Notes: generated by a model not told the origin, from the letters alone. DNA of 64,000 nucleotides from Porphyromonadaceae bacterium (GCA_012523295.1 JAAYIT010000048.1:2300-66299); one strand, 5' to 3'; shown: positions 14,906 to 63,291, numbered from the stretch's first letter. Program-made: numbers and translations.

Positions 14906-14948
14906 TGGCGTATAAAACTTGAACAATTAATTTAAAAATCATAAAAAA

Positions 14949-15146: not shown

Positions 15147-15170
15147 CAAATTTCAAGAAAGTATTATAAA

Positions 15171-15200: not shown

Positions 15201-15323
15201 TTAAATAGGGTCAGCTGAAAAAGGGAACTTACCCCATCACAATTGATCTGTTGCTTTGAAGGCTGCCCTATCACGGAGCGAAGACTAACATTCGCGTCAT
15301 TTTACCTAAAATCGGACATTCCA

Positions 15324-15776: not shown

Positions 15777-15800
15777 AGGATTATAATTTATTTTTAGATT

Positions 15801-15930
15801 GGGACAAACCGCTTCAAGTCGGTTTGTCCCGTTGTCTAACGACGTAAATATGCAACAATCCCGAATATCGGGATGGTTGCGGTGCAACAATTCAAAATTG
15901 CAACATATAGGAATGATTGCGGATAATCAT
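15801..15930 (+). repeat. Family B-prime double-hairpin repeat, copy 2, in the rpiB upstream region
   Basis: Contains GGGACAAACCGCTTCAAGTCGGTTTGTCCC, then CAACAATCCCGAATATCGGGATGGTTGCGG, and ends GATTGCGGATAATCA. Near-identical to 8572..8700. Confidence 0.8.
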
Positions 15931-15983
15931 ACAATCTCTAATATAATTAATGCCGCTTCCATTGGGAACAGAGATAATTTATT

Positions 15984-17135
15984 TTATGAAAAATTCTCCA
16001 CATCATCTTTGGTGATTTTCTGACCCCCTAAGATGATTAAACGTTCTACTACGTTTCTGAGTTCACGGATATTTCCGGGCCAGGTTCGCTCTTGGAGTGC
16101 TTTTATTGCTTTTGTGTCAAAAGTCTTCAATTGAATGCCCTGTTCAAGACAAATTTGCTCGGTAAAATGATCCATCAAGAGAGGAATGTCTTCTTTTCGT
16201 TCGTCGAGAGTAGGGACGTGGATGGGAATTACATTCAACCGGTGAAATAAGTCTTCACGGAAGTTTCCTTTTTCAATTTCTTCTTTCAGATTTTTATTCG
16301 TAGCCGCAAAAACCCGTACATTCACTTTGATAATTTTGTCGCTCCCAACGCGAGAAACCTCGTTTTCTTGCAAAGCACGAAGCACTTTTGTCTGTGCCGA
16401 AAGACTCATATCTCCAATTTCGTCTAAGAAAATTGTTCCTGTATCGGCTTGTTCAAATTTTCCGATTCGCTGCTTATGAGCAGAAGTAAACGAACCTTTT
16501 TCGTGCCCAAAGAGTTCGCTTTCAATTAATTCCGAAGGAATAGCTGCACAGTTAACCTCCACAAATGGTGCTTGCGAACGATTGCTGTTTTCATAAAGAA
16601 GTCGAGCCACGACCTCTTTTCCGGTTCCGTTGGCGCCGGTTATCAACACGCGAGCATCGGTTGGAGCTACTTTTTCAATCATCTCACGCACCTTTTCAAT
16701 GGCAGCCGATTTTCCGATCATCTGGTTTTTTGAAGCAACTTTCTTTTTTAGCGTTTTTGTTTCTGTCACTAACGTATTTTTGTCTAAAGCATTTCGAACA
16801 GTTACAAGCATCCGGTTCAAGTCAATCGGTTTTTCGATAAAGTCAAACGCGCCTTTTTTAATACACTCCACAGCTGTGCCGATATTACCATGTCCTGAAA
16901 TCATAACTATAGGAGCTTCTACGTCGCTTTCCTGGAGTTTTTCGAGGAATTCCATCCCATCCATTTCAGGCATTTTAATATCTGAAAAAATAAGGTCAAA
17001 CTCTTCGTTCAGAGCTGTATCCAAGCCCACACGACCATTTTCTGCCACCACTACTTTATGTTTTTCAAACTCCAAAATATCTTTCATCGTATTTCGGATA
17101 CTTCGTTCATCGTCTATAACTAATATTTTTGCCAT
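15984..17135 (-). CDS. Sigma-54-dependent response regulator (REC + AAA+), with no C-terminal HTH visible
   Basis: 383 aa. It has a receiver domain (ILVIDDE, phospho-acceptor context DLIFSDIKMPEMDG), a Walker A (GANGTGKE), a GAFTGA-variant loop (ESELFGHEKGSFTSA) and DEIGDM. The protein ends about 25 aa after the AAA+ lid. Confidence 0.85.
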   Translation of the reverse strand: MAKILVIDDERSIRNTMKDILEFEKHKVVVAENGRVGLDTALNEEFDLIFSDIKMPEMDGMEFLEKLQESDVEAPIVMISGHGNIGTAVECIKKGAFDFIEKPIDLNRMLVTVRNALDKNTLVTETKTLKKKVASKNQMIGKSAAIEKVREMIEKVAPTDARVLITGANGTGKEVVARLLYENSNRSQAPFVEVNCAAIPSELIESELFGHEKGSFTSAHKQRIGKFEQADTGTIFLDEIGDMSLSAQTKVLRALQENEVSRVGSDKIIKVNVRVFAATNKNLKEEIEKGNFREDLFHRLNVIPIHVPTLDERKEDIPLLMDHFTEQICLEQGIQLKTFDTKAIKALQERTWPGNIRELRNVVERLIILGGQKITKDDVENFS

Positions 17136-20900: not shown

Positions 20901-22493
20901 ATGAACAGAAGTAGTGTGATAAAATTAGCAAGTTTTATTTTTCTAATCATTTTTATTGCATCTTGCGCGCCAAGGAGACAAAATAACGATGCTCAGCCAC
21001 CGCCTCCGAAGGGTTCATCAGTTTCAACAGCTACCGGTTGGACATATCAGAATGAGAATTTCTCCGGTGGAACAGGTTATGCGTCAGCCGGATTTGCTGC
21101 ACAGGAAAATTACAAACCGCAAATTCCATCCGGAATGGTTGTTGTGGAAGGTGGTACTTTTACAATGGGTGAAAAAACTGATATGATTACTGCCCGGCGG
21201 GACAATTTGTCCCGCCGAGTTACGGTTGGTTCTTTTTATATGGATCAGTACGAAGTCAGTAACCTGATGTGGCGCGAGTACACGCACTGGATGGATGTGG
21301 TTTTCGGTGAAGTTGCACCAAGATTGGTTAATCAGGCGCAGCCGCACGTAAATAAAGCGAGCGATCCGTTGACTTACAATGAACCTTACTATGACCGTTA
21401 TTACACGCACCCGGCATTTAATCATTATCCGGTGGTAGGAGTTACGTGGGAGCAGGCAATGGATTATTGCCAATGGCGAACTGACAGATTGAACGAGCTG
21501 GTATTGGTAAAAGCAGGAGTTTTAGCTCCACCCGATTTTTCGTATGTTCAGCGTGTAGCTAATTTGGACTCAATTTCACAAAATTTCGTGTTTAATACGG
21601 AAAAATATCTACTACAACGCTCATACAACCCGCCAATGGGACCAAAACCGCTTCAAGGCGCTTTTGGAGAGCCTCGAAAAGCGCAAATGGGTGATGGATT
21701 GATGTTTCCTAACTTCAGACTGCCCACTGAAGCCGAGTGGGAATTTGCGGCGTATGGGCTAAAAGCAGATAAGAACGGACTTGTTGCTGAAGGCAGGTTG
21801 TATCCGTGGACGGGCAATCGACTCAGAGATAAGAGCAAAGGAAAAAATCAGGGACAAATGCAAGCAAATTTTGTCCGTGGGCGCGGCGATATGATGGGAA
21901 CTGCCGGTGACCTGAACGACAGATTTACCACAACAGCACCGGGTAATGCCTATCCGCCAAATGATTTTGGGCTTTATAACATGGCCGGAAATGTAAATGA
22001 GTGGGTGCTTGACGTGTACCGCTCTACATCGCATCAGGAAGTGGCTGATTATAACCCTTACAGAGGAAACCAAGGTTATACCTATTTGGCAGAATCTCAA
22101 ACCGAAAACGGTGGATATAACTTGAAAGTGGATTCACTCGGAAGGATAGCTCGCGTAGTGTTGCCGGAAGATGATATGCGTAGTTACAGGGATGGTACTA
22201 ATCAGATAGCAACCGATTTTCAGCTCTATACAGATCCGGAAGGAGTGTCTGCACTAAGAAACAGATCACAATTAGACCCAACCGACGTACTCGCTCCAAA
22301 GATTACAAACAAAACACGAGTGTATAAAGGCGGTTCTTGGAAAGACCGCGCCTATTGGATTAATCCGGCTACGCGTCGCTATCTCGACCAAGATAAATCT
22401 GCCAACGATATCGGTTTCCGATGCGCCATGACGATGCTCGGAAGTATCGACAACCAACCGGTTACCAAGAAAAAAACATCGAGGAAGAAGTAG
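20901..22493 (+). CDS. FGE-sulfatase/SUMF1-fold lipoprotein, GldJ-like
   Basis: 530 aa with a lipoprotein signal (IIFIASCAP) and SUMF1-family blocks (YPVVGVTWEQAMDYCQW, FRLPTEAEWEFAAYG, NDFGLYNMAGNVNEWV, YKGGSWKD, GFRCAM). It stands alone rather than in a porKLMN-type operon, which favours GldJ over GldK/PorK. Confidence 0.6.
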   Translation: MNRSSVIKLASFIFLIIFIASCAPRRQNNDAQPPPPKGSSVSTATGWTYQNENFSGGTGYASAGFAAQENYKPQIPSGMVVVEGGTFTMGEKTDMITARRDNLSRRVTVGSFYMDQYEVSNLMWREYTHWMDVVFGEVAPRLVNQAQPHVNKASDPLTYNEPYYDRYYTHPAFNHYPVVGVTWEQAMDYCQWRTDRLNELVLVKAGVLAPPDFSYVQRVANLDSISQNFVFNTEKYLLQRSYNPPMGPKPLQGAFGEPRKAQMGDGLMFPNFRLPTEAEWEFAAYGLKADKNGLVAEGRLYPWTGNRLRDKSKGKNQGQMQANFVRGRGDMMGTAGDLNDRFTTTAPGNAYPPNDFGLYNMAGNVNEWVLDVYRSTSHQEVADYNPYRGNQGYTYLAESQTENGGYNLKVDSLGRIARVVLPEDDMRSYRDGTNQIATDFQLYTDPEGVSALRNRSQLDPTDVLAPKITNKTRVYKGGSWKDRAYWINPATRRYLDQDKSANDIGFRCAMTMLGSIDNQPVTKKKTSRKK

Positions 22494-23351: not shown

Positions 23352-24731
23352 ATGAAAAAACTAATTGCATTTCTTATCCTCGCGCTGGTTGTACAAGGTA
23401 CGGCGCACGCGCAACTTGGCGGATTGCTCAACAAAGCCAAAGACGCCGTCAAAAAAGAAGCGACTAAGGTAACTGAGAAAAAAGCCACCGAAACAAAAGA
23501 AAAAGTCGAAAGCAAGGCAACCGAAACAGCTACTGCTGTAACTACTTCTACATCCAATGCCAATGCTACCGACATTGACCCCAACTTGGGCTTATCCATG
23601 AGCCAATTGCGGGAATCGTACAACAAACTGTCACACGAAGCGTATCTGACCATTTATAGAAACACGCCTTATTGTTTCTACGTAAACAGTTGGAAAGAAA
23701 CCGCCGAGTACTTTAACATGATGCGCTACCTCATTGTCAATATGATGGTATCGGGCAATGACTCCCCCACTCTTTTATTCAAAAAGTACGGCGATGCCTA
23801 CGCGTTGCCTGCTGAAATGATTATCAATGCCAATTTTGCGGTGTTCAAAGCATTTCCCAAAGAATCCTATCCCCTATTCTTGGAAGCGCGCACGCTGCTG
23901 CGCAACTGGGAAAACGGCAGGATAGCCTCAGATCACGAAAAAATAAACACCTTGGTGATGGAAACATCCGAAGACGGTACGGGATTCGGTTTTCGTTATT
24001 CTGAAAATAAAAAATACGGCAGAGGCGTGGACGACCCCTTTATGATAAGCGCTTATACGGGCGAGAAAAAGAGTGAGCGACTGCCTCGTTGGAAAGCCGA
24101 AGAAGCCCGTTTGCTAAAACTCTACCGGGAAAATGTGCCGTTTGAAAATGTAAAAAACACATTTATAAACACCTTGACGCAAACGGCACAATACAGCAAA
24201 GAGAAAAACTGGCTCTTCGGCGTGTACAACAGCTATCAGCTCGAAGTAGCCGCCGAAGATATGAAAAACCACCCGAAAAAAGTGGAAGACAATGATTACA
24301 CCCAGGCATTGGCGATGTACGAGAAATTAGCCGCCAACAATTACCCCAAGTGGGAAGCCCATCTTAAGAGTGAATGGATGAAAGAATTAGAAGACATCTA
24401 CAGCCAAATAGGTGACGGTAAAAGTGAAATCCCGAAAGCAGGCAAAAGCGATCCGAAATTAGAAGCCGAAATGATAGCCATTGCCAAAACCCTCTACGAG
24501 GACGGGCGCGTACCGGTAAAAGCCATTATCAAAGGCGCCGACTGGTCGTATGACCGCAATGCCTTCGGACAAATCATCAACCGGTACCACACCGGCTACA
24601 TCATTTTCAAAATGAAAGACGGCACACACCGCATGGTGGACATCGGCTTTAAGCAAATGTACAACGGCGGAAGCTACGGCAGGCTGCAACTACGCGGCGT
24701 CGGCACCTCGAATTTAGAAGTGGATTATTAG
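23352..24731 (+). CDS. Secreted protein of unknown function
   Basis: 459 aa with a signal peptide (LVVQGTAHAQ), then a K/E/T-rich low-complexity linker and a globular region. I recognise no family motif. Confidence 0.6.
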   Translation: MKKLIAFLILALVVQGTAHAQLGGLLNKAKDAVKKEATKVTEKKATETKEKVESKATETATAVTTSTSNANATDIDPNLGLSMSQLRESYNKLSHEAYLTIYRNTPYCFYVNSWKETAEYFNMMRYLIVNMMVSGNDSPTLLFKKYGDAYALPAEMIINANFAVFKAFPKESYPLFLEARTLLRNWENGRIASDHEKINTLVMETSEDGTGFGFRYSENKKYGRGVDDPFMISAYTGEKKSERLPRWKAEEARLLKLYRENVPFENVKNTFINTLTQTAQYSKEKNWLFGVYNSYQLEVAAEDMKNHPKKVEDNDYTQALAMYEKLAANNYPKWEAHLKSEWMKELEDIYSQIGDGKSEIPKAGKSDPKLEAEMIAIAKTLYEDGRVPVKAIIKGADWSYDRNAFGQIINRYHTGYIIFKMKDGTHRMVDIGFKQMYNGGSYGRLQLRGVGTSNLEVDY

Positions 24732-25141: not shown

Positions 25142-25678
25142 ATGGACATACAAATTCAACAATCTATTGAAACGAGGCGAGGAGCGCTTTATGACTACTA
25201 CGAGTTACCGTCAAAAGCCAAGCAAACAGCCGAGGAGGTCTTCTTGAAGATGGAGCAATTGGGCAGCGAGTGCAAAGATCAAGCAGACTTCGAAAAACGA
25301 TTGCTCGATTCACCCATCAATGCGGAATACAATAAACTGTTTGCCGATTTTACGCGCTATGTGAAAAGGCCGGAAGGTACGCCCACTAAAGGTGAATTCA
25401 TGCGAGATTATGCCTCGTCAACTGCCCGTTCAATGGTAGAACACCGAGCAAAAGTGGGACTGCGGGCAAGGATTTTCAGAATGATGCCCGAATCTATACA
25501 AAATTGGATGGTGCGCGGAGCGTACAACATACCCATACTCGGCGACATACTCTCTGCCCGCAATCAGGTAGATATGGCGCGAAGATTTACCGGAGGATTT
25601 AAGGATGAAGAAACGAATGACACAAATCCGGAAGAAAAAAACACGAAATTAAAGAAAGATAAATCAGAGAAGAAGTGA
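25142..25678 (+). CDS. Hypothetical protein with a lysine-rich tail
   Basis: 178-aa ORF with sustained coding-like composition and no signal peptide. I recognise no family motif. Confidence 0.5.
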   Translation: MDIQIQQSIETRRGALYDYYELPSKAKQTAEEVFLKMEQLGSECKDQADFEKRLLDSPINAEYNKLFADFTRYVKRPEGTPTKGEFMRDYASSTARSMVEHRAKVGLRARIFRMMPESIQNWMVRGAYNIPILGDILSARNQVDMARRFTGGFKDEETNDTNPEEKNTKLKKDKSEKK

Positions 25679-48184: not shown

Positions 48185-48223
48185 AAAAAAATAACAGGCA
48201 CGATAGCGCTCTACCGTGCCTGT
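48185..48223 (-). terminator. Rho-independent terminator of the B12 operon
   Basis: Stem ACAGGCACG / CGTGCCTGT with a T-run on the minus strand, about 50 nt after the stop at 48272. Confidence 0.7.
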
Positions 48224-48271
48224 CAACTTGACATATATTTAATTAACCAAAAATGGTTCGTGAGGATGAAG

Positions 48272-48997
48272 TTATTTTTTAACTTCTTGCGTAAACTCTA
48301 CATTGTCAATACATACATATTTGGGTGTGTTGAGTCCCCACTCACCCTTATCCGATGAATCGAAAGTGAAACGTACCTTATCTACTTCGCCTAATTTGCT
48401 GACATCCACTTTTTCCCACTTGTCGGAAATAAATGATTTACCGTTCCGAAAATCAGCAAGGTAATAATCAACTTTTCCGGTTTCGGTGCTACCAGAAAAA
48501 CCGGTAATCGTTACCTTAAACCAATCGCCTGCTTCAAATTTCTTGGAATAATCACTTCCGTTTTTAATGATATAATACGCTGTAGTAGTGTTTGTTAACT
48601 GTATGTTCTTAATCTTGTATGCGCCATAAACATTAGCAACAGAATGAACGTATGCCGTATCATACACTACCCCAAATTTTTTGGAGTTTAACGCACCGCT
48701 TCCCGCAATTACGTTGTACTGATTCATGCCGTCATATCCCTCCGCTTTGGTGTCTGTGTGCGAAGAGCAGGCAATTCCGCCATTCCAAAATGCGCTTCCG
48801 TTCATTTGAAATTTAATTCCTTTTGACTCGAATGTCTCGGTGGTGATTCCGTCTTCATTTAATGTTACATCTTCAAAATCAATGATTGTGGTAGTAATTT
48901 TGAGATCGGGTCCACCAATGGTGGTGTCGTCTTTTTTGCAAGAAGTAAATGTAACGGCAAGTAACAGTATTACGTAAAATAAATTTATTTTTTTCAT
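48272..48997 (-). CDS. DUF4465-like surface lipoprotein (candidate corrinoid-binding accessory protein)
   Basis: 241 aa with a lipoprotein signal (VTFTSCKKD) and the pattern FWNGGIACSSHTD...NQYNVIAGSG...KYVCIDNVEF. It is the last gene of the riboswitch-controlled operon. Confidence 0.55.
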   Translation of the reverse strand: MKKINLFYVILLLAVTFTSCKKDDTTIGGPDLKITTTIIDFEDVTLNEDGITTETFESKGIKFQMNGSAFWNGGIACSSHTDTKAEGYDGMNQYNVIAGSGALNSKKFGVVYDTAYVHSVANVYGAYKIKNIQLTNTTTAYYIIKNGSDYSKKFEAGDWFKVTITGFSGSTETGKVDYYLADFRNGKSFISDKWEKVDVSKLGEVDKVRFTFDSSDKGEWGLNTPKYVCIDNVEFTQEVKK

Positions 48998-49012
48998 TGT
49001 TTTGTAAATTTT

Positions 49013-52000
49013 TTATTGTTTGATAAATTTCATTGTTTTATTATTTATTTTCGCCACGTACACACCGTTTGTCCAGCTACTTACGTTTATTTGCGTACCG
49101 GCTGTGTAGTTGGTGTTTTCATACACTTTTACGCCCGCGGCGGAATAAATGGACAAATAGCCGTCTGCACTTACGCTAACGACATGAGTAGCGGGATTGG
49201 GCGAAACAAGAATAATTGATTGTTTATTATCGGTCAATCCCGTAGGTTTTGACACAACTAAACTTACCTTACTTGACTCAACGGAGGAAACTTCGTTCTT
49301 CACAATACAGTGATATTCACCGCTATCGCTTTCTTGCGCGTTTGGTATAGAGAGTGAACTTTCGGTTGCACCATCAATCGGTTCTGACGCAGTAGGCGCT
49401 TGTTGAGCAATTCCCGAAGGCGCTGTGGCAGATTTATACCACTGATAAGTTAGATTATCTCCTTCTGCAACAACTGAAAGCGTAACATCATCTCCAACGG
49501 TTGCAGATCCTGCTACGGGTTGAGTGGTAATTACCGCTTTGGCAAGAACAGTCAGCGTTACTTTTTCAGAAGCCATTACGCCTGCGTCATTCGTTACCAC
49601 ACAATGGTATGTACCGTTTTTGTCTTTTAGTAGTTGTTCAAACAAAATAGAGTAAGTTGCACTTGTTGCCCCGCTGATTGGCTCATCGTCTTTGTACCAT
49701 TGGTATCGTAGATTACCACCACGAGCGGTAATCGAGAATGAAGCGAATGCATTTTCAGCTTTTACCAATGAAACGGGCTGTTCGGTAATTTCCGGTACAA
49801 TTAACCGTGCTGTAAACAACACTTTTTCGGAAACAACTTCACCTGCCGAGTTTTTAACAACGCAATGAAACTGAGCGCCATTATCTTCTAATTTAGTAAC
49901 AATGGAATACATGGACGAAGTGGCATTATTAATTAGCGCATCATCTCTATACCATTGATAAGCCAAGTCGCCACCGATTGCTTCCACGGTGAATGTTGCT
50001 ATTTCCCCGACTACTACGTCTTGTGCCGTAGGTTGAGTAGTTATTTCCGGTACAGCAATAACGTTGACGTTAAGCGTAGTAGAAACCAATTTGCCGTTTG
50101 AATTGGCTTTTAATGTCAATTTTGTGGTGCCAAGTGTTCCTTTTGATTTTAGCGTTAAGGAATCGCCTGAGATTTTCACATCCACTAAGTCGGGATTGTC
50201 CACACTAAAAGATTTGACAATTGCTTTATCAAAATTGTCTTTATCGGTAATTTTATCTCCCAAGTAGATTGCCGTGTCATTTTTGAAAGAAATTTTTCCT
50301 AATTGCGTATTGTCGATAACGGGACCATAATTATCGGGGAAAACAGGCATAGCGGGGAACCAATAATGTTTTTCCATTTCATATTCTCTCAAAACTTCGC
50401 CATCTACGGCATTAATCTGTATGACCTTATAAGATTGGTCGCCAAAGCCTTTAAACATGGAAGCATAAATGTGGTCTGTTTCAGGGCTAATTCGAAAACC
50501 TGCTCCGTACAACCCCCAATCGTCAGTGGATTCATAAACGACTACAGGCTCGGCTGACGGATCGTCTAAATCCAATTTATATATTTTTTTTGAAGGCATC
50601 CAACCGCCGTTATTTTTCCAATAAAGCGTATTGGTCTGCTTGGAAGCGCAGAATCCGTCCGCTGTCCACGCGTACCACGAATTGGGGATTGAAGCTTCAT
50701 TAGGGAGTATTCTATTTTCAGTTTCCAATGTATAAGGATTTATTTTAACCAATGTCTTGCCGGAGTTAGCCGTTTCGTCGGTACTTGCCCACACATTGCC
50801 GTCTTTACTCATAACGATAGAGCCGTACTTTCCGTTAATGGTGGTTTCCAAGGTGTTGGTAAGCGCGTTGATAACCAAAATGCCTTTGTTTTGCAGAACG
50901 GCAAAAACCCGGTTGCCTACGCGTAGCATGGTTCCCACTTGTCCGTTATACGGACCGCCTTCGCCCGAAGTGCCTTCAATTTTATTTCCAACGGTTAAAT
51001 TATTTATATCAAAAAGATAAATACCGCCCGATGTACCAATATAGCCCGTATTTTCATCTACGCCAAGGAAGGAACGACCGTCAGCGCCACCGATAGTTGG
51101 AAATTCGGCTTTTACTTTCATCGTAACAGCATCCGCCACAGCCAACCTGCTACCTTGAATGGAAGCGCCCCCGTCTTTGTCCTGCTTGGAAACAATGTAC
51201 ATTTTCCCCCCGTAAATAGTTCCAAATGGTGCAGTAGCGCCCAATTCATGCCCCGAATTTTCTTTTTGGAATACTCGGTAGGTCCAATCTCCGTCGTTGG
51301 ACAGGAAGTTGACCGTACTATTGTTGTGTCCGAACCAATCTTCGTTTACAAAGAATGTTCCTTGCGAGTAGTTGGGTGTTGCGGTGGAAGCTATAAACTT
51401 GCTGTTTATGCTCTCATCGCTAATCCAACTAAAGTCCGGATTAGCTACCCAAAGGTCCCAACAGCCATCGGTAAGCGTCCGGCTTGTAGCTCCGACATGT
51501 GAACCGTTGAATTCAGAAGTAAAATCGGCTCTGATCATATACGTCAAAAATCCGTTGTTCCATCCGCCAAACCAATAATCGTCGGCATCAAGCAGTTCCC
51601 AACCGTCAAAGTTATAATTACCCGAAGGAGATAGTATTCCATCTTCAGGGTAGAGGTTAACGCCGGATTTAGTTAAACCGACATTACCGTTGAAATCTCG
51701 GTCATAGCCCAATCCACCTACAGCAACTCCATATTGCGTACTGCCCATCAACAAAACGTACAGCCGGGCATCTTGTTTCGCGATGGCACGAAGCATCTGC
51801 TCCCCCGTGCCTTCAGCTTCATTTTCCCAACGGTACCCCCAAACCATCACGGGCGCATCGGTTCCGTCTGCGTTTTTCCACTGAATGCCCATGGCTGCCT
51901 GCTTTGAACCACTCCCAACCCAAAAAGCAATGCTGTCCATGTTGAAAGTTTTGTTGGAAGCGGTAACCGCGCCCGGCGCTTTTTTAATCTTCGTTCCGGC

Positions 52001-52132
52001 TTTCTGAACCGTTTGTAACTTGGTTAATTCTTTGGCGCTGAAAGGGTGTCCTTGTTTTGTCTGCGCCGTTGCGGTGTGTATTCCGAAAAATATTGAAATA
52101 CAAACTAATGAATACGTAAATAGTTTTTTCAT
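49013..52132 (-). CDS. Large T9SS cargo protein: N-terminal domain, BtuG-like propeller region, three Ig (I-set-like) repeats and a CTD
   Basis: 1039 aa with a signal peptide. The segment FFVNEDWFGHNNSTVNFL...GGKMYIVS is paralogous to the N-terminus of the 408-aa propeller protein. Three ~90-aa repeats each contain QWY[RK]. The tail (VSPNPATHVVSV...GVYVAKI) looks like a T9SS sorting domain. Confidence 0.7.
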   Translation of the reverse strand: MKKLFTYSLVCISIFFGIHTATAQTKQGHPFSAKELTKLQTVQKAGTKIKKAPGAVTASNKTFNMDSIAFWVGSGSKQAAMGIQWKNADGTDAPVMVWGYRWENEAEGTGEQMLRAIAKQDARLYVLLMGSTQYGVAVGGLGYDRDFNGNVGLTKSGVNLYPEDGILSPSGNYNFDGWELLDADDYWFGGWNNGFLTYMIRADFTSEFNGSHVGATSRTLTDGCWDLWVANPDFSWISDESINSKFIASTATPNYSQGTFFVNEDWFGHNNSTVNFLSNDGDWTYRVFQKENSGHELGATAPFGTIYGGKMYIVSKQDKDGGASIQGSRLAVADAVTMKVKAEFPTIGGADGRSFLGVDENTGYIGTSGGIYLFDINNLTVGNKIEGTSGEGGPYNGQVGTMLRVGNRVFAVLQNKGILVINALTNTLETTINGKYGSIVMSKDGNVWASTDETANSGKTLVKINPYTLETENRILPNEASIPNSWYAWTADGFCASKQTNTLYWKNNGGWMPSKKIYKLDLDDPSAEPVVVYESTDDWGLYGAGFRISPETDHIYASMFKGFGDQSYKVIQINAVDGEVLREYEMEKHYWFPAMPVFPDNYGPVIDNTQLGKISFKNDTAIYLGDKITDKDNFDKAIVKSFSVDNPDLVDVKISGDSLTLKSKGTLGTTKLTLKANSNGKLVSTTLNVNVIAVPEITTQPTAQDVVVGEIATFTVEAIGGDLAYQWYRDDALINNATSSMYSIVTKLEDNGAQFHCVVKNSAGEVVSEKVLFTARLIVPEITEQPVSLVKAENAFASFSITARGGNLRYQWYKDDEPISGATSATYSILFEQLLKDKNGTYHCVVTNDAGVMASEKVTLTVLAKAVITTQPVAGSATVGDDVTLSVVAEGDNLTYQWYKSATAPSGIAQQAPTASEPIDGATESSLSIPNAQESDSGEYHCIVKNEVSSVESSKVSLVVSKPTGLTDNKQSIILVSPNPATHVVSVSADGYLSIYSAAGVKVYENTNYTAGTQINVSSWTNGVYVAKINNKTMKFIKQ

Positions 52133-52324
52133 TTGTTAAAAAAGCCCCCTATCTCCCGCAGGGAGAATTTAGAGCATTGAATTATGTTTGTAAAATTGTT
52201 GATAATAAATTTAATCATTCCCTACCCGAACTACTTTCCCGAATTCCGACAGATCGGAACGAGATAGGCGGGGACAAGCGGTATGTCATTTTTTTGTTTA
52301 TGGGTGTTTCAATAAGATTGTTTC

Positions 52325-53506
52325 TTATTTTATGAATTTTCTCGTTATTATCTCGTTCCCTATTTTTATTTTTGCTATATAAACGCCTGCAGGAATGTGT
52401 TGTAAATCAACAAACTGCGTGTTGTGGCTCGTTGCTATAGTCTTTCCGTGCATGTCCAAAATGGTGATTTCTTTAATCTCACCGGCGCTTCTGACCGTTA
52501 ATCTGCCTTGCGAAACAAGTAACAGCGCTTGAGTGGCTGTGGGGTTTTTCACGCTCGAAACCACAGCATCGGGGTGCAGGTCGGTAACGCCCATCACTTC
52601 GGTGGAAGTTTCGCCGAGCCAACCGCAGTATTGGTTTACCGCGGTATAGATTTTCACAAAATCAATGGCTGGCAAATGCACAGGATTACCATCGGCATCT
52701 ACCGCCCACTCGATATTCATATTTGACATTTCATCGGTGTTCGGCGCATTGTCGGCATACCCCCAAGGATAAGCATATTGAACATAATAACTGCCGTTGC
52801 CACTTTCGTCTATGTAATTATTCGCGAGTTTTGTGCCGTTAAACGTCAGTTCGCTGTCCGAAATCCACTGCGGATAATACGGCTGATTGTGAAACGTATT
52901 TCGATACAAATGCCCGCTCCCGTGCCCATTTGTGGTCCATCGAATGTAAGTAGTGTCATTCAAGAATGTATAATTGTTGTCCGGATCTTTTACTTTGTTT
53001 TCATCGGGTTTATAGTAGGTGATTTGATAATTTTTAATGGTTTCGGGTTTGCTGTATTCGCTTCCGGCAAGTTCGTACCAAGGATCGTCGGGCAGTCCGT
53101 TTTTATTCACATCTACCGAAACCATTACAATGCCCGGCTCGCAACTTCCACCACGCCTGGGTGCATCAGGATTGGGATTTGTATTAGCCCAAAAGGCGTT
53201 GCCAAGTACTTTGAAGTCTGCCAGACCGGCTACATTGACAATCGGGTGATCGAAACCCACGACAACATATCCGCCGTATCCGCCTAACGAAATCATCACC
53301 TTATTGTCGTCTGCGAGATTTGCTTGTGCTTTGGCTCTCATTGTTTCGGGTGTGTCGCCTGCTTCGTATGGCGGTAATTCATTGATATACTGCCCGGGCG
53401 CAGGTCGATACTCGAACACACGCTTAATATAAGGTGAGTTTTGAGCGTTGATCCCAAAAATGATTACGCTGAATATCAGTAAAAAAGTGTATTTCCGTGC
53501 CTTCAT
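52325..53506 (-). CDS. T9SS cargo protein of unknown function
   Basis: 393 aa with a signal peptide. The conserved-looking core is ISLGGYGGYVVVGFDHPI ... CEPGIVMVSVDVNKNGLPDDPWYELAGSEY, and the CTD-like tail contains AGVYIAKIKIGNEIITRKFIK. Confidence 0.6.
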   Translation of the reverse strand: MKARKYTFLLIFSVIIFGINAQNSPYIKRVFEYRPAPGQYINELPPYEAGDTPETMRAKAQANLADDNKVMISLGGYGGYVVVGFDHPIVNVAGLADFKVLGNAFWANTNPNPDAPRRGGSCEPGIVMVSVDVNKNGLPDDPWYELAGSEYSKPETIKNYQITYYKPDENKVKDPDNNYTFLNDTTYIRWTTNGHGSGHLYRNTFHNQPYYPQWISDSELTFNGTKLANNYIDESGNGSYYVQYAYPWGYADNAPNTDEMSNMNIEWAVDADGNPVHLPAIDFVKIYTAVNQYCGWLGETSTEVMGVTDLHPDAVVSSVKNPTATQALLLVSQGRLTVRSAGEIKEITILDMHGKTIATSHNTQFVDLQHIPAGVYIAKIKIGNEIITRKFIK

Positions 53507-53510
53507 AATA

Positions 53511-54737
53511 TTAGTTTTTATAAATTATTTTATTCGTTTGAACCGTATCTGTCGGTATTGTATCTTGTTTTTCTATCGGCAACAGTGCAAAATGTGCCGG
53601 AATGTCGCCCGTGCGGACACTCCATTTCTTTTTTCCGTCTTTGTCAAAACAATAAAGCAAACCCGGCGAAACGTAGTTGCCGGCATCAGTTACGTAAATG
53701 TCTTTTGTTTTAGGCTCAACCAAAATTCCATACGGGATTTTGATCAACTTATCGGTGCCGTCGGATATAAAATTCCGACTTTCAATTTTTCGGGTCAATG
53801 TATTTACAATGGCGTAGGTTATTTCGTTTGTGTTAGTGATATGGCTCCATTCCACGCTGTACACATAGAGCGAGTCACCGCTCAAATACATATTGCTTAC
53901 ACCAGTAGGAATGGTATCGGTAACGCGTTGTTGCTTGCGGTCAATGAAGTACAAGCGCGACGGGTGTCCCTTGTAGTCACCGCGCGAACCCACCCAAAGG
54001 TTACCGCGTTGGTCGGCTCGAATGCGGTGGAGATTGTAATCTACATCAATGCGTTTTTCTTCTTTGAATGTATTCAAATCAATGACAGACACCGTTCGTT
54101 CATAGTTTTTCAAATTACCGGCACCCATGTATCCACCGGAATTGGTTACATAAATCTTCCCGTTCACAATTGCCAACTCATCGGGCTGAAAACCAACTAT
54201 GCACCTGTCAACTTCTTGCAGGGTAGCGGTATCTATTTTTGCCACAAAACCCTTTTGGGTGTAATTCGGATTAACTTCCACCGGACCGGCATAGGACGTT
54301 ACGTAGGCATACTTCCCCAAAAACCGAATGTATCGGCAGTTGGGTATATCTATCTGCCCGATACGCTTGGCAGTACGGGCTTCCATCACTTCTATCTTGT
54401 TGGAGCAATTAATCACGGCATAGAGTTTATTCCCGTATATTTGTAAGTCGTTTCCCACGTCGCCAAGCTCTTTGGGCACCATCGGATTTACTTCGGCATA
54501 AATATTTCGCTTGTAATTTCCGGTGCTGAAATCCATATAGTCAAGCGTGGACTTGTTACTGCCCATATTGCCTTCGTTGAGCAGGTAAAAGCCGACGGCA
54601 TCGGTTACTTCGCGCGGATAACCAAGCTCAATCGTTTCCGAAAGGTGCATTTCCACATCGCCCCGACAGCCGATTACACTTACAGCAACGATAATAGTCG
54701 TAAAGAAATAGAATCGTATTTTTTTAGGAAACATCAT
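53511..54737 (-). CDS. Beta-propeller surface lipoprotein, BtuG-like (YncE/DUF5074-like)
   Basis: 408 aa with a lipoprotein signal (VSVIGCRGD) and repeated blade-like segments (LYAVINCSNKIEV, AYVTSYAG, IYVTNSGG, LWVGSRGD, LYVYS, IYVTDAGN). Its start overlaps the btuB stop by 4 nt. Confidence 0.6.
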   Translation of the reverse strand: MMFPKKIRFYFFTTIIVAVSVIGCRGDVEMHLSETIELGYPREVTDAVGFYLLNEGNMGSNKSTLDYMDFSTGNYKRNIYAEVNPMVPKELGDVGNDLQIYGNKLYAVINCSNKIEVMEARTAKRIGQIDIPNCRYIRFLGKYAYVTSYAGPVEVNPNYTQKGFVAKIDTATLQEVDRCIVGFQPDELAIVNGKIYVTNSGGYMGAGNLKNYERTVSVIDLNTFKEEKRIDVDYNLHRIRADQRGNLWVGSRGDYKGHPSRLYFIDRKQQRVTDTIPTGVSNMYLSGDSLYVYSVEWSHITNTNEITYAIVNTLTRKIESRNFISDGTDKLIKIPYGILVEPKTKDIYVTDAGNYVSPGLLYCFDKDGKKKWSVRTGDIPAHFALLPIEKQDTIPTDTVQTNKIIYKN

Positions 54738-56788
54738 ACTTCGAAAGATAAAATTAGTTTGTAATTACGCTTGGGCATGGGATAGTTAAGTACTACTTCG
54801 TAATCTTGGCTGAAAATATTATTTATTTCAAGCGAGATTTTTGCACGGTTGCTTTTTATTTTGAAGTTTTTCACAATGTTCATATCGTGCGTGTACCACG
54901 GTTGTTCGTAGTTTTCGGGAATGTTGGCTGAATTGTGATAACGTTCGCCCACATAGATAAAGCTGTAATTCAACGTCAACGTTTTGTACTGAAAACTCGC
55001 AATAGCCGACCCGTTGTGCCACGGAATATACGGGATTTGACCGCCCCACGTCATAGCCTGCAACTCGGGACTTGCGTCGGGCGTAAAATCCTGCGCTTGT
55101 TGGTACGTATAAGTCAGCTTGACATTAGCGATCAGATTTTCAGCCGGTTGCAAGGAAGCTGACGTTGAGATATCCATTCCACGTATTTCAACGTATCCCA
55201 AATTCATCATCATCCACCGATACATTCCGCTTCCTTTGGGCACGGCAATGATTTTATTGGTTACTTGATTAAAGTACCCGTCCGCTTGAATTTGCCATTG
55301 ACGAAATATACTGTTTTTCAGTGCTTTGGTGTACTGAAAGCCGACATCATATTGGTGCGTGAATTCAGGTTTCAGGTTAACATTTCCAATATCGGTGTAG
55401 TAAAGGTCGTTGAATGTCGGCATTCGGAAAATATTTTTGTAGAATGCGTGCACGTTGAAGTCGGCAGTTCGGAACGGCTTGTAGGAAACGAAAAAAGCGG
55501 GAGTAAATTCCTGTTTGTCAGGCGCTGATTGTGCGTTGCCGGTTACTGCCGTGTTTCCGATTTTTATTTTTTCATTTACAAAAGTGCCCAAGACGCTTCC
55601 TTGCATTTTTACTTTTCCCAAATCAAGCGCCGAAGCTACCGCTATGAGTGCCGTCAGACGGTTAGGAAAAACAAAACCGGCAAGATTAGACGTAAGTGTA
55701 TTCCACTGTAAATCAGCGGAAAGAGATACGTCCCAATTTTTCAAGACAGCGTATTTGTTGGCTAATGAAAGGTAGATTTCCTGCTGATTGAAGGTGTTGT
55801 CAAGGTACATCAGCGTGGTGTCGGGATTGAGATAACGCATGTAATCGTTGGCGTACTTGGCGTTTACCTGCGTTTCCAATTTAGGGAAAATTGTTTTTTG
55901 CCATGAAGCCTGCGTGAAAAAGTTCCTATCCCATTGTCGTTGTGAGCGTTTCCACACGTTATTTACAATGGCTCCGGGAATTCCACGCTCGGAGTTATAA
56001 AAATAGGTTTTTACGTTCCACTTGCCATCTTCCATTGTGCCGTACAGTCCGCTTTCGAGACGCAGTGCGTGTATGTCGCCATTGGCACGCACGGCGGTAG
56101 TGTCATACACCGTTTTGTGCGTGGACGGGTGCACTCGTTTGTAGCGGTACTTGTATTTTCCGGACGAGTAAATATATTCCGAATTGAATGTAAAAGCTGT
56201 GTTAGCCTTTATTTTCTGTTCCCAAAGCAGAGACGGGTTAACTAAATGAAATGACCCGGTTTTGAAATTAAATTTCAGGTTGATGTTTTTGTCTTTCTCG
56301 AAACGGGGTGAGCGGGAGCGCAGATAAATCGTTCCTGCCGACCCGAAGTCTTTGGCAGGTTGAAATATCTCACTTTTCTGTCCGTTGTAAAGCGATATTT
56401 CTTCAATGTTTTCAAGCGAAAATTTACCCAAATCTATCTGTCCGTTCTGCGCATTGCCAAGTTGAATGCCATCGTAAAACACCCCCATGTGGTTGGTGCC
56501 CATACTTCTGATATTCACTGTTTTCAGACCGCCGATACCGCCGTAGTCTTTAATCTGCACACCAGCGAAATACCGAATGGCGTCAGCCACCGAAAAACTG
56601 TTGAGACTTTCGAGTTCCTTTCCGGAGAGTTTCTGCGCGGGGATAACTTCTTTGTAGGATTTTGCCGTTACCACCACTTCACGCAGTTGGCGTACGCTGT
56701 CATTTTCAGACTGCGCTTGCAGAGCCAAACCACATAAAATCAGCAGTAAAACAACGGTCAGAAGCCTTTTATCAAAGAATAAATCCAT
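54734..56788 (-). CDS. btuB: TonB-dependent outer-membrane transporter, probable cobalamin receptor
   Basis: 684 aa with a signal peptide, a TonB-box region (LREVVVTA), plug motifs (VADAIRYFAGVQIKDYGGIGGLKTVNIRSMGTNHMGVFYDG) and a barrel ending in V. It lies directly downstream of a cobalamin riboswitch. Confidence 0.78.
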   Translation of the reverse strand: MDLFFDKRLLTVVLLLILCGLALQAQSENDSVRQLREVVVTAKSYKEVIPAQKLSGKELESLNSFSVADAIRYFAGVQIKDYGGIGGLKTVNIRSMGTNHMGVFYDGIQLGNAQNGQIDLGKFSLENIEEISLYNGQKSEIFQPAKDFGSAGTIYLRSRSPRFEKDKNINLKFNFKTGSFHLVNPSLLWEQKIKANTAFTFNSEYIYSSGKYKYRYKRVHPSTHKTVYDTTAVRANGDIHALRLESGLYGTMEDGKWNVKTYFYNSERGIPGAIVNNVWKRSQRQWDRNFFTQASWQKTIFPKLETQVNAKYANDYMRYLNPDTTLMYLDNTFNQQEIYLSLANKYAVLKNWDVSLSADLQWNTLTSNLAGFVFPNRLTALIAVASALDLGKVKMQGSVLGTFVNEKIKIGNTAVTGNAQSAPDKQEFTPAFFVSYKPFRTADFNVHAFYKNIFRMPTFNDLYYTDIGNVNLKPEFTHQYDVGFQYTKALKNSIFRQWQIQADGYFNQVTNKIIAVPKGSGMYRWMMMNLGYVEIRGMDISTSASLQPAENLIANVKLTYTYQQAQDFTPDASPELQAMTWGGQIPYIPWHNGSAIASFQYKTLTLNYSFIYVGERYHNSANIPENYEQPWYTHDMNIVKNFKIKSNRAKISLEINNIFSQDYEVVLNYPMPKRNYKLILSFEV

Positions 56789-56904
56789 TTTTTCCCGAAT
56801 GAATTTTCAGGCAAAAAGATTAAAAACAGAAAAGCACAAAAGGTGGAAAATAAAAATTAGTTGTGCGTTCTATTTTTAAGCTTTAATTCCCGAAAGCGTT
56901 AAAT

Positions 56905-57175
56905 AATGTATGATTTTGGCAGGTCTTCTGACTTAAACCTATCATCTGCAACCCTTCCCAACCCAGCCTCCAAAATCCCGCAAGTGGGACTATTATGCCT
57001 CTATGAAGAGATGGAGTGCTTAAGTCAGTGGTTTTTGGTGTTTTTTTTGCAGACGTTCCCAATTCCCCTTCTTTGCGGGGTTAGGGAGGCTATTACAGCT
57101 ACGGGTATAGTTCAGGATTTTCACCTGATTCCCTTTTCATCGCGCATTCCGAAGTGAGTGGAATGAGCGACACCA
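56905..57175 (-). promoter_or_regulatory. Cobalamin (B12) riboswitch
   Basis: The minus strand reads GAAAAGGGAATCAGGTGAAAATCCTGAACTATACCCGTAGCTGTAAT (conserved core) and, downstream, GGTTTAAGTCAGAAGACCTGCC (B12-box-like). It ends about 125 nt upstream of the btuB ATG. Confidence 0.8.
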
Positions 57176-57313
57176 AATTATCACGATGCAAAGGTAGTCT
57201 ATTTTTTGTTGGATAAGAAATTTTGAAGAGGAATATTATGTTAAAAGCCTAATTTGGCGAGAGGAGGATTATTGAATTGGACAATGTCTCAATACGGATT
57301 TCCATGAAGTATT

Positions 57314-57649
57314 TTAATCTAATAAATGCCCAATAACGTGGTTGTTGCTGATGTAGGTTACCAAATAGATCAACTCATTATCAACATTTTGATAGGTTGA
57401 GAAAAATACGTACCAAGTTGTGTGTTTATTCTTAACAAAAGTAGCATAGAACAATTTCTTACCATATCTTTCAAAGTATTGTGGGGCGATATGTTTTAAT
57501 TTGTAAGGAAGCGATGTTTCAATATCCTTAAAAAGTTCTTCAACGTATTTCTCGGCTGTTTCCAAAAAGCCAAAATACTCTTTATCATGTAGAATTTCAG
57601 ACAATTCGTACAGATACGAACGAACCCGCGGACTGACTAACACTTTCAT
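57314..57649 (-). CDS. Putative toxin partner (RelE/ParE-superfamily-like)
   Basis: 111 aa, overlapping the upstream antitoxin gene by 4 nt. Its C-terminal pattern TWYVFFSTYQNVDNELIYLVTYISNNH resembles ParE/RelE-fold toxins. Confidence 0.45.
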   Translation of the reverse strand: MKVLVSPRVRSYLYELSEILHDKEYFGFLETAEKYVEELFKDIETSLPYKLKHIAPQYFERYGKKLFYATFVKNKHTTWYVFFSTYQNVDNELIYLVTYISNNHVIGHLLD

Positions 57650-57906
57650 TTCTTTCTTTTTTGGAAAATATCTTTCAAGTCACTTTTAACACCTACAAGC
57701 AATTCGTCAAAAGTAATCGCATTGGCGAGTTCTTCATCGGGTTCAAGAATGTAATCTTGCGGAATAACCGTGTCCATTTCCGTAATCGGAGTAACCCGAT
57801 ACGCCTTGTTTTTTCCCCGCTGGATAAGGATTTCAGCGCCTTCATCGATTTTGTCGAGGTAGGTTTTTTGGTTGGCCCTGAATTCAGCTGATGAAACTAT
57901 TAACAT
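57646..57906 (-). CDS. Phd/YefM-family antitoxin
   Basis: 86 aa. The N-terminus VSSAEFRANQKTYLDKIDEGAEILIQRGKNKAYRVTPI fits the Phd/YefM fold pattern. Confidence 0.6.
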   Translation of the reverse strand: MLIVSSAEFRANQKTYLDKIDEGAEILIQRGKNKAYRVTPITEMDTVIPQDYILEPDEELANAITFDELLVGVKSDLKDIFQKRKK

Positions 57907-61564: not shown

Positions 61565-62413
61565 ATGCCAGTGAATGCCAACAGCGAAATAATTCTTTAT
61601 CAATCAGATAATTCCATTCAACTTGAAGTGCGGATGGAAGAGGAAACGGTATGGTTGAACAGACAGCAGTTAGCAATGCTGTTTAATCGTGATGTCAAAA
61701 CTATTGGAAAGCACATTAACAATGCAATTAAAGAAGAATTACAAGATCTTCCAACTGTCGCAAATTTTGCGACAGTTCAATTAGAGGGTAGCAGGATAGT
61801 TGAAAGACAAATTGAATACTACAACTTAGACGTAATTTTATCTGTCGGATACCGTGTTAAATCAAAAGAAGGTGTTAAATTCCGCATTTGGGCAAACCGT
61901 ATCCTAAAAGATTATCTGTTAAAAGGTTATGCCGTAAACAATAGGATAGAAAATCTCGAACACCGGGTTAAAGCCACCGAAGACAAGATTGAGTTTTTTG
62001 TAAAAACAGCACTTCCACCTGTGCAGGGAATTTTTTTCGACGGACAGATCTTTGATGCGCATAAGTTTGTGTCTGATGTAGTAAAATCGGCAAAGAAATC
62101 TATTATATTGATAGATAATTATGTGGATGAAAGTGTATTACATTTGCTTTCAAAACGTAAATCGAGCGTCAGTTGCAAAATTTTTACGAATAAAATCACC
62201 AATCAGTTTCAATTGGATTTGCAAAAATTCAATGCACAGTATGAACCCATTGAGGTAGCGCAATTCTCAAAATCTCACGACCGTTTTCTAATCATTGACA
62301 ATCAAGAAGTGTATCACATTGGCGCCTCACTCAAAGATTTAGGCAAAAAATGGTTTGCTTTTTCAAAAATAAAAATCAATGCCGAGCAAATTTTAGCGGC
62401 ATTATCAACGTAA
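61565..62413 (+). CDS. RhuM-N/ORF6N-like DNA-binding domain fused to a PLD-like (HxR variant) domain, copy 1
   Basis: 282 aa. The N-terminus (IILYQSDNSIQLEVRMEEETVWLNRQQLAMLFNRDVKTIGKHI...YYNLDVILSVGYRVKSKEGVKFRIWA) matches the RhuM-family pattern. The C-terminus carries SHDRFLIIDNQEVYHIGASLKDLG, which resembles a single HKD motif. Confidence 0.7.
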   Translation: MPVNANSEIILYQSDNSIQLEVRMEEETVWLNRQQLAMLFNRDVKTIGKHINNAIKEELQDLPTVANFATVQLEGSRIVERQIEYYNLDVILSVGYRVKSKEGVKFRIWANRILKDYLLKGYAVNNRIENLEHRVKATEDKIEFFVKTALPPVQGIFFDGQIFDAHKFVSDVVKSAKKSIILIDNYVDESVLHLLSKRKSSVSCKIFTNKITNQFQLDLQKFNAQYEPIEVAQFSKSHDRFLIIDNQEVYHIGASLKDLGKKWFAFSKIKINAEQILAALST

Positions 62414-62448
62414 TCACAGAAATCAACTTAAAGATCACAGTTCAGACA

Positions 62449-63291
62449 ATGAACACCAACAGCGAAATAATTCTTTATCAATCAGATAATTCCATTCAAC
62501 TTGAAGTGCGGATGGAAGAGGAAACGGTATGGTTGAACAGACAACAGTTAGCAATGCTGTTTAATCGTGATGTCAAAACTATTGGAAAGCACATTAACAA
62601 TGCAATTAAAGAAGAATTACAAGATCTTCCAACTGTCGCAAATTTTGCGACAGTTCAATTAGAGGGCAACAGGATAGTTGAAAGGCAGATTGAATACTAC
62701 AACTTAGACGTAATTTTATCTGTCGGATACCGTGTTAAATCAAAAGAAGGTGTTAAATTCCGCATTTGGGCTAACCGTGTCCTAAAAGATTATCTGTTAA
62801 AAGGTTATGCCGTAAACAATCGAATAGAAAATCTCGAACACCGGGTTAAAGCCACGGAAGATAAGATTGAATTTTTTGTAAAAACAGCACTTCCACCTGT
62901 GCAGGGAATTTTTTTCGACGGACAGATCTTTGATGCGCATAAGTTTGTGTCTGATATAGTGAAATCGGCAAAGAAATCTATTATATTGATAGACAATTAT
63001 GTGGATGAAAGTGTATTACATTTGCTTTCAAAACGTAAATCAAGCGTCAGTTGCAAAATTTTTACGCATAAAATCACCAATCAATTTCAATTGGATCTGC
63101 AAAAATTCAATGCACAATATGAATCCATTGAGGTAGCGCAATTCTCAAAATCTCACGACCGTTTTCTAATCATTGATAACCAGGAAGTGTATCACATTGG
63201 AGCTTCGCTCAAAGATTTAGGCAAAAAATGGTTTGCTTTTTCAAAAATAAAAATCAATGCCGAACAAATTTTAACGGCATTATCAACGTAA
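62449..63291 (+). CDS. RhuM-N/ORF6N-like + PLD-like protein, copy 2 (tandem duplicate)
   Basis: 280 aa from the ATG at 62449, differing from copy 1 at about 6 internal residues. The duplication period is 884 bp and includes the 3' flank TAATCACAGAAATCAA. Confidence 0.7.
   Translation: MNTNSEIILYQSDNSIQLEVRMEEETVWLNRQQLAMLFNRDVKTIGKHINNAIKEELQDLPTVANFATVQLEGNRIVERQIEYYNLDVILSVGYRVKSKEGVKFRIWANRVLKDYLLKGYAVNNRIENLEHRVKATEDKIEFFVKTALPPVQGIFFDGQIFDAHKFVSDIVKSAKKSIILIDNYVDESVLHLLSKRKSSVSCKIFTHKITNQFQLDLQKFNAQYESIEVAQFSKSHDRFLIIDNQEVYHIGASLKDLGKKWFAFSKIKINAEQILTALST

Follow-up and report, generated by a model that had tools for sequence, protein, structure and literature searches.

BtuH- and BtuK-type corrinoid-binder homologs with predicted type IX secretion signals in a cobalamin riboswitch locus of a Porphyromonadaceae bacterium

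Results

Gene content and leader of the btu locus

A 64,000-nt stretch of DNA from a Porphyromonadaceae bacterium (GCA_012523295.1, JAAYIT010000048.1:2300-66299; this whole stretch is hereafter called the window) contained a btu operon predicted to serve the capture and import of cobalamin (vitamin B12) as well as further corrinoids. The operon was located entirely on the minus strand and comprised five co-oriented genes, numbered 1 to 5, which were assigned to the families BtuB, BtuG, BtuH, and BtuK (genes 1 to 4) and BtuJ (gene 5) (Table 1). The deduced products of genes 3 and 4 displayed a signal peptide of the signal peptidase I (SPI) type together with a type A C-terminal domain (CTD) of the type IX secretion system (T9SS), located at the extreme C-terminus and scoring over both the Pfam and the NCBIfam cut-offs. 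An initial annotation of the window had proposed that accessory proteins for B12 capture are T9SS cargo in this operon, which agrees with the CTD tag and the lack of a lipobox in two of the four accessory proteins.

The cobalamin riboswitch recognized in that annotation, whose core and B12 box were directly legible in the sequence, was confirmed with the covariance model RF00174, which it matched over the whole model (1-189 of 189) with 76.9 bits (gathering score, 31.5) and E 3e-17. The aptamer reached to 57192, 17 nt past the end initially annotated (57175), and one of its peripheral loops was enlarged by an insertion of 58 nt. The expression platform, about 110 nt long, led from the aptamer to the btuB start codon and formed an imperfect, long hairpin with a U-rich tract behind it; given this arrangement and the position of the aptamer in the btuB leader, control may be ligand-dependent. 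The consensus of the Bacteroidetes -7 box is TAnnTTTG, and the box TAcCTTTG found at the 5' edge of the leader may act as the promoter.

Table 1. Position of the elements of the btu locus and of T9SS-related genes in the window
Feature	Position (nt)	Strand	Basis
Putative -7 promoter box TAcCTTTG, 5' edge of riboswitch leader	57189..57196	-	Pattern match and sequence read
Cobalamin riboswitch aptamer (RF00174)	56901..57192	-	Covariance-model match
Gene 1, predicted BtuB, TonB-dependent corrinoid transporter of the outer membrane, 684 aa, SPI signal	54734..56788	-	Domains and BtuB1 match
Gene 2, predicted BtuG, surface lipoprotein, seven-bladed beta-propeller, BtuB lid, 408 aa	53511..54737	-	Structure matches and lipobox
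Gene 3, BtuH-type predicted T9SS cargo, 393 aa	52325..53506	-	H-domain and CTD matches
Gene 3, SPI signal peptide, residues 1-21			By inspection (cleavage between FGINA and QN), no lipobox Cys
Gene 3, H-domain, residues 24-311	53437..52574	-	Structure matches
Gene 3, type A CTD, residues about 334-393	52507..52328	-	TIGR04183, PF18962
Intergenic gap between genes 3 and 4, 192 nt	52133..52324	-	Open reading frame coordinates
Short GC hairpin and U-run, just upstream of gene 4	52165..52145	-	Sequence and fold scan
Gene 4, multi-domain predicted T9SS cargo, 1039 aa	49013..52132	-	Domain scans, structure matches
Gene 4, SPI signal peptide, residues 1-23			By inspection
Gene 4, N-module (g4N), residues about 51-256	51982..51365	-	AlphaFold2 (AF2) model, family search
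Gene 4, BtuK1-like DUF5074 propeller, residues 257-599	51364..50336	-	DUF5074, 399 bits
Gene 4, beta-sandwich linker between propeller and immunoglobulin-like (Ig) domains			
Gene 4, three I-set Ig domains, residues about 693-965	50056..49238	-	Domain scan
Gene 4, type A CTD, residues 976-1039	49207..49016	-	PF18962, 33.9 bits (cut-off 27); TIGR04183, 32.4 bits (cut-off 23)
Gene 5, BtuJ, DUF4465 beta-jellyroll B12-binding surface lipoprotein (predicted), 241 aa	48272..48997	-	PF14717 and structures
Intrinsic terminator closing the operon	48192..48225	-	15-bp stem, 7 GC pairs, 4-nt loop, T7 run
GldJ-like lipoprotein (T9SS/gliding-associated)	20901..22493	+	TIGR03524, 317 bits, E 3e-94
Third, unrelated T9SS type A CTD protein, 730 aa	25874..28066	+	PF18962, 38.3 bits; TIGR04183, 33.6 bits; extreme C-terminus

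BtuB and BtuG

The product of gene 1 combined Plug and TonB-dependent barrel domains (PF07715 and PF00593) and matched BtuB1 of Bacteroides thetaiotaomicron (8BLW_A) over its full length (E 1.7e-139); it scored far under the cut-off of the equivalog models for E. coli-type BtuB, as expected for the Bacteroidota type. With plug, barrel, and homology to a characterized BtuB, gene 1 is a predicted BtuB of the latter type. Gene 2, with a start that runs into the btuB stop (4-nt overlap), codes for a protein with the lipobox VIGC, in which Cys24 is followed by acidic residues at +3 and +5 (by inspection). It matched the G-domain of BtuG1 (8BLW_B residues 47-361; E 7e-37), the structures 8PTF/8PTD (E 1e-37), and those of BtuG2 and BtuG3 (E 1e-16 to 1e-20), and reached 63 bits with DUF5074. 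Judged from sequence, this product is BtuG, a signal peptidase II (SPII) lipoprotein with a homologous propeller encoded beside btuB. The BtuB-like transporter and its 408-aa propeller partner had been described in these terms in the initial annotation.

A BtuH-type binder with a T9SS tag

An identical gene-3 protein, with gene order conserved, was encoded on 12 public contigs, including one of an anaerobic-digester metagenome. Its H-domain gave E 3e-80 with that of BtuG1 (residues 393-660 of 8BLW_B) and E 1e-48 with the domain of BtuH2 that binds B12 (7BIZ), the homologous part of BtuH2 comprising residues about 318-591. The B12 contacts of BtuH2 are Q333, N399, F401, H476, Y510, W511, W577, and L578 (PMC8941943). 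When they were mapped by hand onto the alignment of gene 3 with 7BIZ, seven of the eight were kept (Q39, N103, F105, H206, Y240, W296, and L297), the remaining one, W511, being conservatively replaced by tyrosine (Y241). Most of the contact positions were also invariant or nearly so across gene-3 homologs. In place of the SPII lipoprotein signal of BtuH, the protein had an SPI signal and a T9SS CTD, which scored 39 bits with TIGR04183 (cut-off 23) and 32.2 bits with PF18962 (Por_Secre_tail; cut-off 27) and showed the C-terminus PAGVYIAKI...RKFIK. Thus, of the previous description of this product as an unknown protein with a T9SS tail, the tail was retained whereas the BtuH domain now accounts for the rest.

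A BtuK1-like multi-domain protein with a T9SS tag

The only solved sequence relative of the gene-4 propeller was BtuK1 in complex with cyanocobalamin (9S6C; E 6e-24), and BtuK2 was not matched. BtuK1 is set apart from BtuK2, which does not bind B12, by the loop 22-32 (E23-x-W25-x-x-H28), truncated in BtuK2 (PMC13616437). This loop was kept in gene 4 as NEDWFGH, and E23, W25, H28, T60, and K76 were retained. The architecture around the propeller differed from that of B. thetaiotaomicron BtuK, which has an N-terminal PKD domain: gene 4 showed neither PKD nor lipobox but an additional N-terminal module (g4N), three Ig domains on the C-terminal side, and the CTD instead. It had been proposed as a T9SS protein with a second BtuG-like region; the T9SS assignment held, whereas the propeller is BtuK1-like and not BtuG. 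Among the 120 best gene-4 homologs, 25 had a canonical CTD, 75 a short Prevotella-style tail, and a single one a lipobox-like N-terminus. The Ig repeats of gene 4 (motif YQWYKD...GATS.TY) were closest to Ig-like domains of phage tail or decoration proteins (9NCF_S, E 3e-37; 9C2D_S, E 3e-29).

The module g4N gave no Pfam match at E up to 10 and no PDB match with a 24-sequence profile. Its family amounted to 1,429 cluster representatives, in which the module was usually located right after the signal peptide and was sometimes repeated; inside btuB loci it occurred either as a stand-alone lipoprotein or CTD-tagged. The AF2 model (predicted local distance difference test, pLDDT, 91) had cobalamin carriers as top fold matches, namely the beta-domain of transcobalamin, both free and with cobalamin, intrinsic factor, and haptocorrin, besides 3U7Z; each match was below significance (best Foldseek match: E 0.09, probability 0.87, template modeling score, TM, about 0.35 on the query). 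Two family members contained units whose N-half corresponded to g4N and whose C-half was scored as DUF4430 (PF14478), so that the sequential order of the two was preserved. Hybrid units of this kind in relatives reached 57.6 bits with PF14478; used as a query, the hybrid unit gave no PDB match. An hhalign comparison restricted to the C-halves lent modest support (P 9e-4 vs. 0.08 for the reversed control). The sub-significant top fold matches, the hybrid units of relatives, and the B12-uptake context of the module point to the beta-domain of transcobalamin, intrinsic factor, and haptocorrin, and to DUF4430; in contrast, it is about twice the size of the beta-domain and has no direct sequence match to PF14478 or to the PDB. 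On balance we lean, by a narrow margin, towards an origin of g4N related to the transcobalamin beta-domain and DUF4430, and the module may bind B12. If it is indeed transcobalamin-like, it would link bacterial and animal B12 carriers in evolution. BtuL, considered as a possible identity of g4N, was discarded, as it is a receptor L-domain repeat protein.

BtuJ

Gene 5 matched DUF4465 (PF14717) with 157 bits and the B12-bound DUF4465 structures 9HMU, 9FCT (BtuJ1), and 9QPM with E from 5e-21 to 9e-18. The motif NTPKY of the HI-loop (residues 223-227; consensus NTPAY) kept the conserved tyrosine, and the lipobox FTSC, with Cys20 followed by KKDD (by inspection), fits an SPII lipoprotein with an export signal. 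Jellyroll, tyrosine motif, and lipoprotein signal together correspond to BtuJ. The DUF4465 lipoprotein of the initial annotation was thus borne out in its domain and anchor, whereas its placement in the BtuH class was not, since the DUF4465 family is BtuJ in published Btu work.

Occurrence of tagged binders in related loci

Eighty genomic loci from named species of Bacteroidales and Marinilabiliales were compared. Almost all of them showed the order btuB-btuG-btuH followed by genes containing BtuK, BtuJ, or g4N, and, where upstream sequence was available, nhmmer placed an aptamer upstream of btuB almost without exception; the RF00174 model confirmed the nhmmer-predicted aptamers in eight out of eight cases, and seven of the eight loci tested had one. 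BtuH appeared in two mutually exclusive forms, one with an SPI signal, a domain that begins near residue 22, and a tail of 50-90 aa, and the other with a lipobox, an extra N-terminal segment of about 90 aa, and no tail. At least one strictly CTD-tagged binder was present in 42 of the 80 loci (BtuH in 25, BtuK in 21, BtuJ in 15, and g4N in 5), these frequencies being biased upward by retrieval of the loci with an alignment of CTD-type BtuH and the CTD counts within the sample being conservative because variant tails were missed. Among the BtuJ and BtuK neighbors, 21 of 26 were confirmed by Pfam to carry PF18962.

Gene 3 had 6,518 homologs among the scored candidates of a large protein collection, and a canonical CTD was detected with a home-made hidden Markov model (HMM) in 104 of the best 120; TIGR04183 confirmed 14 of 16 canonical-tail sequences tested. 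The CTD-tagged arrangement, described in the initial annotation as a variant and potentially new mode of B12 capture, was not peculiar to the window but common, both in the loci sampled and among gene-3 homologs. Predicted CTD-tagged B12 binders constitute a widespread architecture, so far uninterpreted in the literature searched.

Several loci presented additional arrangements. Among the aptamers confirmed with RF00174 were those of L017 and L067, in which the riboswitch lies directly before a CTD-type btuH that is followed by a CTD-tagged DUF4465 gene. The proteins encoded in L015 (4401-6926), L001 (1573-4728), and L005 (11210-14221) comprised large CTD-tagged proteins with DUF4465 (BtuJ) domains and one BtuH-BtuJ fusion with a CTD-like tail; with them, each of the three classes of accessory binder is represented in T9SS-tagged form. 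A contig of Bacteroides nordii JCM 12987 (L053) carried lipoprotein BtuG and BtuH beside a BtuK and a 1,421-aa protein containing BtuH (10764-12677 and 12697-16962), each of the latter two with a canonical CTD. Second aptamers were located before downstream accessory genes in L024 (11245-11408), L030 (11240-11404), L058 (10966-11107), L063 (8308-8449), L061 (12930-13098), and L038 (12876-13087); no such aptamer was present at the corresponding place in the window.

T9SS evidence in the window

Like described T9SS type A cargo such as the gingipains, genes 3 and 4 combine a Sec signal with a C-terminal Por_Secre_tail over the cut-offs. Elsewhere in the window, the gene for a GldJ-like lipoprotein and that of a third CTD protein support, at the level of sequence families, a T9SS-proficient host. 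The GldJ-like match was under the equivalog cut-off of 458, with GldK/PorK as second-best match (227 bits). Between these two genes lie the open reading frames (ORFs) 23352-24731 (+) and 25142-25678 (+), without family match.

The CTDs might alternatively be vestigial, or structural beta-sandwich domains of proteins that are periplasmic or arrive at the surface in some other way, in a host without a working T9SS. Such a situation would fit with the T9SS genes of the window, where the sub-cut-off GldJ-like gene was the only one seen and no PorK, PorL, PorM, PorN, or SprA of the core appeared; core genes, if present, would lie outside the window. Against this stand the presence in one window of a gene of the GldJ family together with three CTD proteins independent of each other, the mutual exclusion of CTD and lipobox over the 80 loci, as expected if each of them represents a surface route, and the retention of the CTD in most of the best gene-3 homologs. 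We therefore consider vestigial CTDs very improbable, and T9SS export of genes 3 and 4 remains the reading followed here.

Transcription of genes 4 and 5

The five co-oriented genes had been described as tightly spaced and closed by a terminator. Orientation and terminator were confirmed, as was the spacing of genes 1 to 3 (4 nt between genes 2 and 3, besides the overlap mentioned above) and of genes 4 and 5 (15 nt), whereas genes 3 and 4 were separated by 192 nt. As tight spacing fails at this junction, genes 4 and 5 can be placed only provisionally under riboswitch control, presumably by sharing a transcript with genes 1 to 3.

A different partition would confine the riboswitch-controlled B12 unit to genes 1 to 3 and make genes 4 and 5 a separate unit, the 1039-aa protein being mainly an adhesin or a surface protein for other ligands. 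In the gap, a short GC hairpin with a U-run behind it could terminate or attenuate transcription, so that genes 4 and 5 may escape the riboswitch. The gene-4 Ig repeats resemble those of phage and adhesin proteins, BtuK2 is a precedent for a BtuK propeller that does not bind B12, and gene 4 departs from BtuK1 at three of the eight contacts listed for the latter (E77, changed to Q, and positions 62 and 102). However, no TAnnTTTG box was present in the gap on the minus (coding) strand, the propeller matched BtuK1 and not BtuK2 and preserved the loop that is truncated in the latter, and gene 5 is a bona fide BtuJ. In addition, gene-4 homologs are placed identically after btuH in the relatives L081 and L085 and occur in many btuB loci, some of them behind a riboswitch of their own. 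Taken together, these data make a separate unit unlikely, and a five-gene B12 operon is preferred. A sigma-70 promoter scan was uninformative, its counts equaling the shuffled expectation.

Other explanations for the gap were also considered. A second riboswitch or another known RNA was rejected, since no Rfam family matched even at E up to 10 and folding was unremarkable (z -1.5). In the nearest relatives a multi-pass DUF6580 protein of about 190 aa is encoded between CTD-type btuH and CTD-type btuK (L081, 4460-5032; L085, 11238-11819), and this protein could be an inner-membrane corrinoid transporter. Such a gene is absent from the window, and the gap does not appear to be a remnant of it, as tblastn gave no signal.

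Comparison with Bacteroides thetaiotaomicron and the literature

Operon 1 of B. thetaiotaomicron (BT1486-BT1491: btuK1, btuK2, btuH1, btuB1, btuG1/GH, and btuJ1) contains the same five families under a cobalamin riboswitch, and the ligand-contact residues are largely kept in the present operon. The gene order was different (B-G-H-K-J in the window), and the G and H domains, fused in BtuG1 of B. thetaiotaomicron, were encoded here by the separate, adjacent genes 2 and 3. The main difference concerned the anchor: all accessory proteins of B. thetaiotaomicron are SPII lipoproteins whereas BtuH and BtuK of the window have SPI signals and T9SS CTDs. This suggests that gene fusion or fission went along with the anchor change. 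The proteins P0005 and P0006 (663-670 aa) resembled BtuG-BtuH fusions. Both B. thetaiotaomicron and the best-studied Bacteroides species are, to our knowledge, devoid of T9SS.

T9SS (type IX) went unmentioned in the core Btu papers, where all accessory proteins are SPII lipoproteins, and the cobamide system of Bacteroidota, as modeled on B. thetaiotaomicron, has been termed a "lipoprotein-assisted relay" in a 2026 review (PMC13616437). In the literature searched, which mostly excludes subscription journals, T9SS and B12, corrinoids, or cobamides were linked only by incidental co-occurrence; the statement of the initial annotation that published B12 loci use lipoprotein accessories, with no T9SS corrinoid scavengers described, was consistent with this search. 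An expression table of Chryseobacterium includes a DUF5074 protein among the type A secretory proteins of T9SS, and for Elizabethkingia vesicles a cluster has been reported that consists of DUF5074, YncE, and cell-surface proteins, in both cases without interpretation. In the same literature, described T9SS cargo consists of proteases, glycanases, and adhesins, besides motility proteins and a nuclease, and a vitamin or cofactor binder was not found among it. As far as found, therefore, delivery of the same binding domains by this different route has not been described.

Proposed route of corrinoid capture

Considering the locus as a whole, it is likely that it constitutes a self-contained outer-membrane system for corrinoid capture and import in an anaerobic-digester Bacteroidales bacterium that delivers its BtuH- and BtuK-type binders via T9SS. 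At low intracellular cobamide, the riboswitch would permit expression; BtuB would then insert in the outer membrane, capped by the BtuG lipoprotein, whereas BtuJ, once lipidated, would be flipped onto the cell surface. The products of genes 3 and 4 would cross the inner membrane by Sec and be exported by T9SS through their type A CTDs. After removal of the CTD they would be attached to the surface or released, both being usual for type A cargo, and would bind corrinoids outside the cell, the linker and three Ig domains of gene 4 possibly holding the binding modules off the cell surface. The corrinoids would finally be handed to BtuG/BtuB for TonB-dependent import.

Some observations weigh against this reading. 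What the sequences show are the riboswitch, the identity of the domains, the signal and anchor types, the kept ligand contacts, the synteny, and the wide distribution of CTD forms, and from these corrinoid binding, T9SS export, the fate of the proteins after export (attached or released), transfer to BtuG/BtuB, and regulation are inferred. The types of signal peptide were judged by eye, the T9SS genes seen in the window come down to the sub-cut-off GldJ-like gene, and the short tails (50-60 aa) of Muribaculaceae and Prevotellaceae were not detected by TIGR04183 at E <=0.01, being CTD-like by motif only. To these are added the upward bias of the locus frequencies, the altered BtuK1 contacts, and the hairpin preceding gene 4. 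Moreover, the locus has no inner-membrane transporter: in agreement with the initial annotation, no btuFCD-type gene was present among the window ORFs of >=150 aa scanned.

Instead of being fixed to the surface, the CTD proteins could be released as soluble scavengers ("corrinophores") that return to the cell. Many Bacteroidota other than Porphyromonas secrete type A CTD cargo free, and gene 3 encodes a compact protein with one binding domain and no stalk. Corrinoid capture by Bacteroides has, besides, already been extended off the cell on vesicles (PMC13616437). In contrast, the linker and Ig domains preceding the CTD of gene 4 resemble the stalk of a surface-tethered protein, and a free high-affinity binder would aid competitors in the absence of a dedicated receptor, none being evident. 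Release in place of attachment to the surface seems possible but rather doubtful.

A broader proposal, advanced here only tentatively, is that many T9SS-bearing Bacteroidota (Paludibacteraceae, Tannerellaceae, Dysgonomonadaceae, Muribaculaceae, Prevotellaceae, and Marinilabiliales) possess a T9SS-dependent second tier of cobamide scavenging, in which BtuH, BtuK, and BtuJ binders would be CTD cargo, partly released as soluble or long-stalked corrinophores, and g4N would be a fifth binding module related to the transcobalamin beta-domain. If true, T9SS would be a fitness determinant in the competition for vitamin B12 in gut and digester communities. More generally, the locus and its many relatives suggest that T9SS-proficient lineages, including abundant groups of gut and digester, deliver the same binding domains by another export and anchoring route, sometimes beside lipoprotein forms, which would tie T9SS to micronutrient competition and predicts that T9SS mutants are B12-limited.

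Other features of the window

The neighbors of the operon were unrelated housekeeping genes and a toxin-antitoxin pair. The latter, at 57314-57906 (-) directly upstream of the putative riboswitch promoter, consisted of an ORF for a Phd/YefM-type antitoxin (86 aa) overlapping a 111-aa ORF without family match, and is a probable type II system. A SusC/SusD-like transporter pair at 765-5755 (+) preceded an ORF of 659 aa (6063-8042) that matched nothing in Pfam or NCBIfam. Two overlapping ORFs, 61565-62413 (+) and 62350-63291 (+), each matched only the first 70 or so positions of the RhuM model and may represent a tandem duplication or a disrupted gene.

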